27,032 nucleotides of DNA from a virus (taxonomy: Duplodnaviria; Heunggongvirae; Uroviricota; Caudoviricetes). A program made the translations under genes and the position numbers. The DNA lies in the IMG/VR virus record IMGVR_UViG_2695420624_000003, positions 1 to 27,032 of that record. One strand, written 5' to 3'. Positions 3,859 through 5,935 of this stretch are shown one piece after another; the stretch's first letter is position 1; each line of letters opens with the position of its first letter. The notes under the pieces were generated by a model. It was not told where the DNA came from. It saw only the letters and a program-made list of their open reading frames with translations, and searched no databases.

Positions 3859-4194
3859 ATGATGCCATTTGCTCGTTATTTCTGCATTTTCATAAACGTT
3901 GGTTTTGGAGAAGGTGCTAACTGGGTTATGTTACCTGGAGGAATGATAATTCAGCGTGTTTATCTTGGATTTCCTGTCGGCACCAATGTAAGACACATAA
4001 CTTTCCCCCGGTCGTTTACAACAACGAACTATTCCATCTCAATTAACTGGAATGATATCGGTACTGTAACAACTGAAACACAATCGCCAGCAAATGTGGC
4101 GGTTGTTCATCAAACAAAATCATTAACAGGGGCCAGCATCTGGCAGGCAGGTCCCGGGGGATTTAATGTGGACATTATAGCGGTGGGGTATTGA
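3859..4194 (+). CDS. Alternative tail-fibre C-terminal variable segment (Sv'-like)
   Basis: ORF directly precedes an oppositely oriented tail-fibre assembly gene; its first ~18 codons contain the gix-like crossover site, as expected for an invertible fibre segment. Confidence 0.45.
   Translation: MMPFARYFCIFINVGFGEGANWVMLPGGMIIQRVYLGFPVGTNVRHITFPRSFTTTNYSISINWNDIGTVTTETQSPANVAVVHQTKSLTGASIWQAGPGGFNVDIIAVGY
3887..3912. other. gix/pix-like invertase crossover site
   Basis: Reverse complement reads TTCTCCAAAACC AA CGTTTATGAAAA, close to the gix half-site pattern TTATCCAAAACC NN GGTTTACAGGAA; lies about 55 bp upstream of the pin start. Confidence 0.5.
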
Positions 4195-4195
4195 T

Positions 4196-4624
4196 ATGTA
4201 CGTATGGAGCGCTAAAGCAAATGGCTTTTTCCCCATATCGGAGAAAGAAAAATTTGAGGCATCAGGTCTGTGGCCTGATGATGGTGTAATAGTCAGTGAG
4301 GAAGAACATAAAAAGTTATTTATGGATATTCCACCAGGAAAACAGATTGGAACACTGAATGGAAAACCAGCACTGATAGATATTCCTCAGCCGACCAAAA
4401 AGGAATTAATAGCTATTGCTGAAGTTAAAAAATCCCAATTACGGGAAAAAGCTGACAGTGAAATATCCTGGCGTCAGGATGCTGTTGATGCTGATATCGC
4501 AACTGATGAAGAAGCTACAACTCTCACCCAATGGAAGAAATACCGTGTGCTGCTGATGCGTGTTGATACGTCAACAGCACCCGATATTGAATGGCCTACG
4601 CCTCCGGCAGTTCAGGCCAGATGA
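4196..4624 (+). CDS. Tail-fibre assembly protein (alternative orientation, U'-like)
   Basis: 142-aa ORF whose C-terminus (VDTSTAPDIEWPTPP) parallels that of the neighbouring Tfa (TDTSTAPDIIWPELP). Confidence 0.7.
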   Translation: MYVWSAKANGFFPISEKEKFEASGLWPDDGVIVSEEEHKKLFMDIPPGKQIGTLNGKPALIDIPQPTKKELIAIAEVKKSQLREKADSEISWRQDAVDADIATDEEATTLTQWKKYRVLLMRVDTSTAPDIEWPTPPAVQAR

Positions 4625-5189
4625 TATCCGGCGCGGTGCTGGTATCTGTTGCCGTCACCGCGTCAATGTAATCCAGCACGGCGTTAAGTCGGGTTGTTTC
4701 TGCCTGAGTCAGTTTCCGTCCGGCCTGTAATTTCAGCTGAATCAGACTAATGGAAGCCATTGCTGCATCAATCAGTGACTGGCGCTGTGCTTCTGCCGCG
4801 TCTACTGCGGCACTGTGTTGTGCCTCAGTGTCTGTCACCCATTTCTCACCATCCCATTTATCGTATGGCGTTAACGGTGAAATCGTGACATAACCGTCTT
4901 TGATGGCACCGATATAATCCACTGTAACAGCTGCGCCATTTTCGATTGAGTAAACAGTCTCATTGCGATGGTCTTCTTCATGGCGCCATCCCTTACCTGT
5001 AAATACTGCCACTCTTCCCGGAATGTTTTCGCCAGGGTCAATATCAGTGGAACAGGCGGGCATACTTACGCCAGTATTAATATATTCATCAGACCAGCCC
5101 GTATACTCAGATGTTTCAGCATCATAATAAAAACAACGCATATCGCCCGGCACTGTAGCCAGCCCATTTTCATCAAAAACAGGTTTCAT
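4596..5189 (-). CDS. Tail-fibre assembly protein (Tfa)
   Basis: 197-aa ORF immediately downstream of the fibre gene with the conserved Tfa C-terminal region. Confidence 0.8.
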   Translation of the reverse strand: MKPVFDENGLATVPGDMRCFYYDAETSEYTGWSDEYINTGVSMPACSTDIDPGENIPGRVAVFTGKGWRHEEDHRNETVYSIENGAAVTVDYIGAIKDGYVTISPLTPYDKWDGEKWVTDTEAQHSAAVDAAEAQRQSLIDAAMASISLIQLKLQAGRKLTQAETTRLNAVLDYIDAVTATDTSTAPDIIWPELPEA

Positions 5190-5935
5190 TATTTAGCCCT
5201 CACCAGAAAGTTAAATGCAATATTTCGCGGTCTGACAGCAACAAAATTCACACCATCACCCACAGAGTTACTGGTGAAATTAAATCGTGAAAATCCTGGC
5301 TGATTTCCGGCGATGCCATCATGAAAGTTAATTGCGTGTCCCGCACCTTCGCCTATATTCCCGGCAAACTGAGAAAAGTTTGTAGCTGCCTGCCAGCTTA
5401 ATAATTCGCGACCACCGTCTGCACCTCGCCCGTCATCCCAGATACGAATGAAATCACCGCGGGCTTCAGGTAATACCAGCGAAGGAAACACTTTCGCCAG
5501 CACAGGATAATCAGTGGCAGAGAATTTCGCGCCGTTGAACTTCAAAAACACCATACCGGACCAGCTGTCGATGACAGAATTTGGCATTGCAGCGGAGGGC
5601 CAGAAGAACGGAACGCCAATAGCTGGAGCACCTTCTCCCAAACCAAGGTTTTCGAGAGCTGTTTTCACCGTGCCATCCGATTTGATATCGCCAAACGGAT
5701 TCTTGCGGCTTAACAGCAGCGCACGAAGCGCGGTAAGCAACTGGTCGTGCCGCGCCTTCTCCAGGCTGGCACCGGATGCCTCCACCACGCTGCAGAGTTC
5801 TTCCTGCAACATATCAAAGTAGTCATCATCCAGATCGGTGGCAGGTGTGCCGGTCTGGGGGTTACCACGAGTAAAACCGTTCTTACCCGCGCCGAACTTA
5901 TCCTTCTGCGCGGTTTTAGTGTCTATGCGATGCAT
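5189..5935 (-). CDS. Tail-fibre protein, C-terminal variable part
   Basis: 248-aa ORF ([21 protein letters not shown]...) followed by a Tfa gene; a stop codon lies immediately upstream, so no N-terminal constant fibre region is present. Confidence 0.65.

Follow-up and report, generated by a model that had tools for sequence, protein, structure and literature searches.

The window, by which we mean the whole stretch of 27,032 nucleotides analysed here, contains the DNA invertase gene pin and, beside it, two opposed pairs of genes, each made up of a fibre tip and a Tfa chaperone (Table 1). This Pin-type G- or P-segment layout had been recognized in a preliminary description of the DNA, and it was confirmed by the open reading frames (ORFs) and by the Pfam and PHROG matches of their products. 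The true start of pin is the ATG at 3832 (MLIGYVRVST); the 196-aa ORF that begins at 3868 is an in-frame upstream extension. The first fibre-tip ORF, of the P type, is at present unfused. Its match to Gp53-like_C (6.7e-6) covers residues 25–111, and PHROG 2557 matches its C-terminal residues 20–111. The first 14 codons of this ORF lie outside the segment, on the pin side; it is the counterpart of the K-12 gene called 'StfE2', and its leader, MPFARYFCIFINVGFGEGA, resembles that of K-12 stfE. The Tfa protein paired with the P-type tip shares 44 of 135 aligned residues with K-12 TfaP, and the one paired with the E-type tip shares 130 of 200 with K-12 TfaE. The two tfa genes are convergent and overlap by 29 bp. 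The E-type tip itself forms the variable part of the 248-aa fibre and is identical to the variable part of K-12 stfE at 74 of 176 aligned residues; the PHROG C-terminal fibre modules that it matches start at residues 76–103 and run to residue 247.

Table 1. Features of the invertible segment and its surroundings (window coordinates)
Feature	Position	Strand	Basis
pin, DNA invertase, 184 aa, serine recombinase (Hin/Gin/Cin/Pin subclass)	3278..3832	-	Pfam Resolvase and HTH_7; PHROG 125
Candidate recombinational enhancer, two Fis-like 15-mers, 5' part of pin	3748..3811	-	Homology, position
P-type fibre tip, 111-aa ORF with gp53-like C-terminal domain, unfused at present	3859..4194	+	Pfam Gp53-like_C 6.7e-6
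Pin-proximal crossover site, 26 bp, TTTTCATAAACG-TT-GGTTTTGGAGAA, core 3899-3900	3887..3912	.	Pattern scan, alignment to Mu gixR
Invertible segment, 1,746 bp between two core dinucleotides	3900..5645	.	Bounded by both crossover sites
Tfa chaperone gene paired with P-type tip, 142 aa	4196..4624	+	Pfam Caudo_TAP 6.6e-33; PHROG 188 2e-54
Tfa chaperone gene paired with E-type tip, 197 aa	4596..5189	-	Pfam Caudo_TAP 1.1e-27; PHROG 105 2.4e-85
Fibre gene, 248 aa	5189..5935	-	97-codon constant part and E-type variable part
E-type variable part of fibre, residues 98-248, now fused to constant region	5189..5644	-	PHROG C-terminal modules
Fibre-proximal crossover site, 26 bp, TTCTCCCAAACC-AA-GGTTTTCGAGAG, core 5645-5646	5633..5658	.	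Pattern scan, inverted repeat
Constant N-terminal fibre region, codons 1-97, outside segment	5645..5935	-	K-12 StfP identity, PHROG N-terminal modules
Deletion scar ORF, portal codons 1-136 in frame with last 26 ymfQ codons	5939..6427	-	Breakpoints mapped against the prophage of E. coli 19SZHZ886Rt

Around the crossover sites and the fibre genes, a scan for sigma-70 promoters gave nothing convincing, with scores no better than those of shuffled sequence, and fibre expression is thus presumably dependent on the late operon. To the left of pin, two cargo ORFs had no Pfam or PADLOC match.

Pin has the features of a small serine recombinase. A resolvase domain (PF00239, 1.5e-51) is followed by a C-terminal HTH_7 domain (PF02796, 1.3e-14), and PHROG 125, DNA invertase, is matched at 1e-97. 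The closest solved structure is that of Mu Gin (3UJ3), which aligns over residues 1–182 with E = 1.9e-94. The catalytic Ser9, within MLIGYVRVSTNDQ, aligns to position 9 of Gin, which is a serine in 4M6F and an alanine mutant in 3UJ3. Compared with PinE of K-12, 178 of the 184 residues are identical (97%), and all six differences occur at position 129 or later. In addition, Pin carries the basic helix-B residues K46, K47 and R50 and the Fis-contact residues Q150, R153 and L154, offset by one from K47/R48/K51 and Q151/R154/L155 of Hin; basic residues in helix B together with Q/R/L at the Fis contact are specific to enhancer-dependent invertases (PMC3798978).

The good gix-like site that had been noted at 3887..3912 is real, as judged from the inverted repeat, a pattern scan and the alignment to gixR. 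It had been taken as the only convincing crossover site of the segment; nevertheless, alignment reveals a clear second gix site at 5633..5658. Between 3800 and 6000, the longest inverted repeat is formed by 3894-3918 and 5627-5651, which match at 23 of 25 bases. As a control, the region was shuffled 100 times and the best 25-nt inverted match was recorded for each shuffle; the mean was 17.8 and the maximum 20, so that 23/25 was never reached. A degenerate hix/gix pattern, allowed up to three mismatches, matched only 3888..3912 and 5633..5658 in the whole 27-kb window, with 0.28 matches expected by chance. A multi-inversion, shufflon-like system was also considered and rejected, as the same scan found no further crossover sites in the window. 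The two 26-bp sites are imperfectly palindromic and inverted with respect to each other, both are in the 12-2-12 register of the family, and both align base for base with gixR and gixL of Mu. Their central dinucleotides, TT and AA, agree in inverted orientation, which is a requirement for religation.

The positions 5630..5645 are identical to the published 16-bp repeat of K-12 e14, CCTTCTCCCAAACCAA (PMC12529663), and the 26 bp of the fibre-proximal site also occur in K-12 and in the related prophage loci of E. coli Z1323HEC0423 (L002), Z1323HEC0067 (L003) and 19SZHZ886Rt (L005). The inner arm of the pin-proximal site differs from the K-12 repeat by one base, a T instead of a G at 3906. This variant moves the half-site nearer to the gix consensus (AAAACC), after a flip it would place Phe instead of Leu at codon 99, and it is seen in nature on either side of the segment.

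The location of the second site follows from the short constant part of the fibre. The partner had been expected near the 5' end of the fibre gene, at 5870..5905, but the true site is about 230 bp further into the ORF. It falls in codons 93-101 (ALENLGLGE), and the 248-aa ORF extends across the crossover site instead of beginning there. Because the crossover core lies inside codon 97, the constant part comprises 97 codons; since a constant part of only about 97 codons is characteristic of the Pin/P-segment family, the second site is found some 290 bp inside the ORF and not at its start. As for the AAAACC half-site described near the 5' end of the fibre gene, the motif is present at 5874..5879, although as a chance occurrence and not as a crossover site.

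An upstream constant fibre region, stated in the preliminary description to be missing, is formed by these 97 codons. Residues 1–103 of the fibre are identical to the N-terminus of K-12 StfP at 101 of 103 positions (98%), the DNA of 5628..6019 is 95.9% identical to K-12 stfP and the end of ymfQ, and several PHROG N-terminal fibre modules stop at residues 98–104 of the 248-aa fibre. Immediately after ymfQ, the same short fibre gene is present in Z1323HEC0423, Z1323HEC0067 and TUM13936 (L007), where the baseplate genes are kept, and in 19SZHZ886Rt, where the whole virion module is kept. The constant part is thus short by nature and has not been truncated.

Both reading frames are also in order. 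When 3900..5645 was flipped in silico, the constant part joined the gp53-like tip in frame to give a 194-aa fibre, which ends where its own Tfa gene begins, and the pin-proximal ORF then became 165 aa long. The gene pin, both sites and the four ORFs of the cassette are intact, with no frameshifts in any component. A frozen switch, left with a single surviving crossover site and deprived of a constant fibre region, would fit the 5' end of the fibre ORF (5870..5905), which holds only the chance AAAACC, and the upstream baseplate genes, which are indeed deleted. However, the full 26-bp partner at 5633..5658 is the same as the functional K-12 site, and codons 1–97 are a constant region that belongs to the same short fibre gene in intact relatives, which makes such a state hardly credible.

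Enhancers of the invertase class consist of two Fis sites about 48 bp apart, which lie in cis within the 5' portion of the recombinase gene. In pin, Fis-like motifs are centred at +29 (GTATCAACAAATGAC) and +78 (GTGCAGGATGCGAGC), 49 bp apart, and Mu gin, with which pin is colinear in the alignment, has motifs at these two positions as well. The assignment of the two motifs as candidate Fis sites also draws on the layout of the hin enhancer. A strict scan with the Fis consensus gave one or two matches, and the consensus is too degenerate to define an enhancer. Over nucleotides 1–384, pin differs from K-12 pinE by one base, and the candidate enhancer stretch itself is identical. Between the proximal motif and the middle of the 3887..3912 site there are about 96 bp; in native Hin, about 100 bp separate enhancer and site (PMC3798978). 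By homology, position and a loose motif, the +29 and +78 motifs are therefore candidate Fis sites of an enhancer.

The closest known system is the P segment of K-12 e14 (stfP-tfaP / tfaE-stfE-pinE), which has the same gene order and strands as the window. The two flanks are 95.5% and 95.9% identical to e14 at the nucleotide level. Orthology to e14 extends over the recombinase, the constant part of the fibre and the crossover sites: Pin is 97%, the constant region 98% and the TfaE-like chaperone 65% identical, and of the two 26-bp sites, the one on the fibre side is the same in both systems and the one on the pin side has a single base different. Nevertheless, there are clear differences between the two. 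The segment measures 1,746 bp in the window and 1,797 bp in K-12, and inversion of the latter has been reported for PinE, PinQ and PinR (PMC12529663). The tips of the window are other alleles than those of K-12, the E-type being 42% identical and the P-type having no detectable similarity. The orientation of the window segment is opposite to that of the MG1655 reference, and the gene that accompanies pin as cargo is not mcrA.

The architecture is shared with the G segment of Mu, in which the baseplate genes gp47/gp48, the constant fibre part, a site, the segment (Sv U / U' S'v), a second site and the invertase gene gin follow one another. The Mu sites also have 26 bp in the same register. On the other hand, the constant part comprises 170 codons and the segment about 3 kb in Mu, as against 97 codons and 1.75 kb in the window, Mu has a GA/TC core dinucleotide where the window has AA/TT, and the fibre proteins are unrelated in sequence. 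Hin of Salmonella, with its hix sites, belongs to the same recombinase subclass and uses 26-bp sites with an AA core; its enhancer, like the candidate in pin, lies within the 5' portion of the recombinase gene, at a distance of about 100 bp from one of the sites (PMC3798978). The Salmonella switch turns over a promoter and has hin within the segment, whereas in the window coding ends would be swapped and pin is outside.

Both orientations are found in close relatives of the window segment. When the window was compared with MG1655 e14, the flanks aligned in one direction and the TfaE-like part in the other, and the window orientation corresponds to the state termed inverted in K-12 (StfP2/StfE2; PMC12529663). 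A megablast search with 3200..6500 as it stands gave a contiguous match across both junctions in eight complete E. coli genomes; a version of the query in which the segment had been inverted in silico matched four complete genomes in this way. The most direct comparison is between Z1323HEC0423 and Z1323HEC0067, whose flanks are 99.3–99.4% and whose segments are 99.8% identical, with the segment inverted; their alignments overlap exactly on the 25-bp repeats, which places the breakpoints at both sites. With 300-bp queries across each junction and a match required over at least 80% of the query length, 80 complete E. coli genomes had the junction of the constant part with the E-type tip, and 21 had the predicted junction with the P-type tip. 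In TUM13936, the inner half-site with the T variant is joined to the outer half-site of the constant side, a combination that is exactly the product predicted for inversion of the window cassette. In published work, the K-12 segment was found in both orientations within clonal growing cultures (PMC4272514), and 33% of 562 E. coli sequences are reported to carry inversions (PMC12529663). Some relatives have decayed: TUM13936 has a truncated pin, and ETEC strains no longer have the constant region.

Taken together, the window very probably carries a fully equipped Pin-type tail-fibre switch, an orthologue of the K-12 e14 P segment in an e14/SfV-like prophage. Both crossover sites, both reading frames and an intact recombinase are in place, and natural inversions occur in close relatives. 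The suggestion that the switch may be frozen is contradicted by the second site, by the constant region and by the two orientations seen in these relatives, and nothing in the sequence points to such a state. To judge from its homologues, the window copy probably still flips.

In the proposed mechanism, Pin dimers would bind the two inverted 26-bp sites, and assembly of the synaptic complex would be aided by a Fis-bound enhancer located within the first ~100 bp of pin. All four strands would then be cut at the central AA/TT, one pair of subunits would rotate by 180 degrees, and the ends would be rejoined; cutting, rotation and rejoining would thereby flip the 1,746-bp segment. The dependence on Fis and the enhancer and the cleavage chemistry are attributed to the window switch by homology. 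In the present orientation, the 97-codon constant N-terminus would lead into the 151-codon E-type tip, followed by the TfaE-like chaperone. After a flip, the same N-terminus would be joined to a 97-codon gp53-like tip of the P type, followed by the TfaP-like chaperone.

The prophage around the switch is defective. At the right end of the window lie an integrase gene, tRNA-Thr (25589..25664) and proA. The 417-aa ORF at this end had suggested e14 at icd, which was ruled out because the ORF is proA beside tRNA-Thr. The element is thus not resident within icd as e14 is; it is an e14/SfV-like prophage at thrW-proA, a relative of e14 and not e14 itself. It is collinear with the apparently complete myovirus prophage of about 40 kb in 19SZHZ886Rt, in comparison with which it lacks about 14.6 kb upstream of the fibre gene. 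The missing genes comprise most of portal, the protease, capsid, connectors, sheath, tube, tape measure and baseplate genes, and most of ymfQ. The deletion has left a scar ORF with the portal/ymfQ junction at 6019/6020; Pfam Phage_portal matches its residues 47–140, and PHROG matches are to portal at residues 1–137 and to baseplate wedge at 135–162. As one piece, this junction was absent from 5,426 complete E. coli genomes, and there was no exact match to it among the GTDB species representatives. K-12 e14 and the window prophage both have a portal-to-baseplate deletion, although that of the window also takes jayE and nearly all of ymfQ. The defect therefore lies in the prophage and not in the switch: a fibre is toggled that has no virion of its own, since the head, tail and baseplate genes are lost.

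It is somewhat more probable than an even chance that the switch is a neutral relic, with its parts present and perhaps still flipping, and with neither fibre form affecting phage or host. The loss of the ~14.6 kb of head, tail and baseplate genes, from portal codon 136 to the last 26 codons of ymfQ, is in line with this, as is the further decay in relatives (the truncated pin of TUM13936 and the constant region lost in ETEC). Two observations do not sit easily with a relic. The first is that all switch components are intact and free of frameshifts despite the loss of the virion genes. The second is that inversion of the likewise orphaned segment of K-12 e14 is reported to alter the sensitivity to several phages, T2 among them (PMC12529663).

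The latter report raises the question of whether the segment serves the host. K-12 StfE2, which is also gp53-like, is reported to block T2 adsorption (PMC12529663), and a host function of the window segment is therefore conceivable. The host might keep the segment as a phase-variable anti-phage device, in which the 111-aa pin-proximal ORF is made now and masks a phage receptor. In support of this, the window is in the orientation of the inverted StfP2/StfE2 state of K-12, and the leader of the 111-aa ORF is conserved with K-12. Still, we consider the device unlikely: the gp53-like tip of the window has no detectable similarity to the K-12 StfP tip, and hence its specificity is not transferable. 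AGGA abuts the first ATG of the ORF and is 3 nt from the second, which is a poor spacing for ribosome binding, no promoter was predicted in the scan around the sites and fibre genes, and the published K-12 effect was measured under plasmid overproduction (PMC12529663). We regard it as quite unlikely that the switch survived the loss of the virion genes through host-level selection for a StfE2-like receptor-masking module, with a different tip and exclusion spectrum and set in the 'on' orientation.

As a tail-fibre switch, the system is already known; it is the classic Pin/P-segment host-range switch, found in both orientations among the many E. coli genomes that carry it. This switch was first described in the 1980s and was re-examined in 2014 and 2025. 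Its importance here is small beyond correct annotation. It has recently been claimed that the orientation of the K-12 segment controls T2 resistance (PMC12529663), and allelic tips such as those of the window may have other exclusion spectra. With regard to annotation, the fused fibre gene is mislabelled by annotation pipelines and is called 'integrase' in Z1323HEC0423.

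The portal-side breakpoint of the 14.6-kb deletion in the window, after ...GGCTGTGTGGTA, lies inside a GGTA microhomology and falls at the same nucleotide as the beeE/jayE junction of the K-12 e14 prophage. The far breakpoints differ, lying in jayE in e14 but at the end of ymfQ in the window, and the attachment sites are also unlike (icd and thrW, respectively). The coinciding breakpoint could reflect a common ancestor with a nested second deletion, an exchange between prophages or a hot spot for breakage; the deletion junction of the window was not found in one piece among 5,426 complete E. 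coli genomes.

In E. coli TUM13936, only a 117-nt fragment of pin is left (1202..1318 of locus L007), while the invertible segment and the baseplate genes are kept; this is a real case of a switch unable to flip by itself, unlike that of the window. In ETEC strain L1_E925 and roughly 15 related ETEC genomes, a pair of pinE genes, inverted relative to each other, encloses the same invertible segment, the right-hand crossover site has a pin-type outer half-site, and neither the fibre constant region nor a prophage is present. Defence genes (GIY-YIG, Avs2) are found to both sides. The P segment of these genomes is quasi-palindromic and truly orphaned.

Neither cargo ORF beside pin in the window was assigned a family by Pfam or PADLOC. 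Several E. coli genomes carry the 432-aa gene, ~99% identical, beside pinE, and the equivalent slot holds mcrA in K-12 e14, a GIY-YIG LEM-3-like gene in strains Z1323HEC0423 and Z1323HEC0067, and Avs2 in L1_E925. Since its occupants differ across genomes, the slot looks like a variable hot spot for defence or cargo genes. Separately, accessory genes of the prophage in the window gave hits to candidate defence families of PADLOC: PDC-S45, and PDC-M53A with PDC-M53B as a pair.

Coordinates of features in the window and in compared E. coli loci
Feature	Locus	Position	Strand	Remark
Cargo ORF, 373 aa	Window	415..1536	+	Just beyond pin
Cargo ORF, 432 aa	Window	1647..2945	-	Just beyond pin
Overlap of convergent tfa 3' ends, 29 bp	Window	4596..4624		
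Deletion junction, portal side	Window	6019..6020		ORF 5939..6427
Deletion junction, portal side	K-12 e14 (L001)	11139		
Deletion junction, portal side	19SZHZ886Rt (L005)	23043		Equivalent position in an apparently complete prophage, which keeps the 14.6 kb
PDC-S45 candidate defence match	Window	9397..10308	-	PADLOC 5.8e-42
PDC-M53A candidate defence match	Window	12000..13022	+	PADLOC 2.1e-32; paired with PDC-M53B
PDC-M53B candidate defence match	Window	13030..13614	+	PADLOC 2.8e-54; paired with PDC-M53A
P segment with flanking pinE pair	L1_E925 (L006, NZ_LR883050.1)	3572..6525		

The gene at 5950..6696 of the Z1323HEC0423 locus (L002) is orthologous to window 5189..5935 and encodes a fibre in which the constant part is fused to the E-type part, yet the RefSeq pipeline labels it 'integrase'. 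Its equivalents in many RefSeq genomes carry the same label, which appears to be a propagated misannotation. Both tfa products of the window share the terminal motif DTSTAPDI(E/I)WP, as likewise do K-12 tfaP and tfaE.
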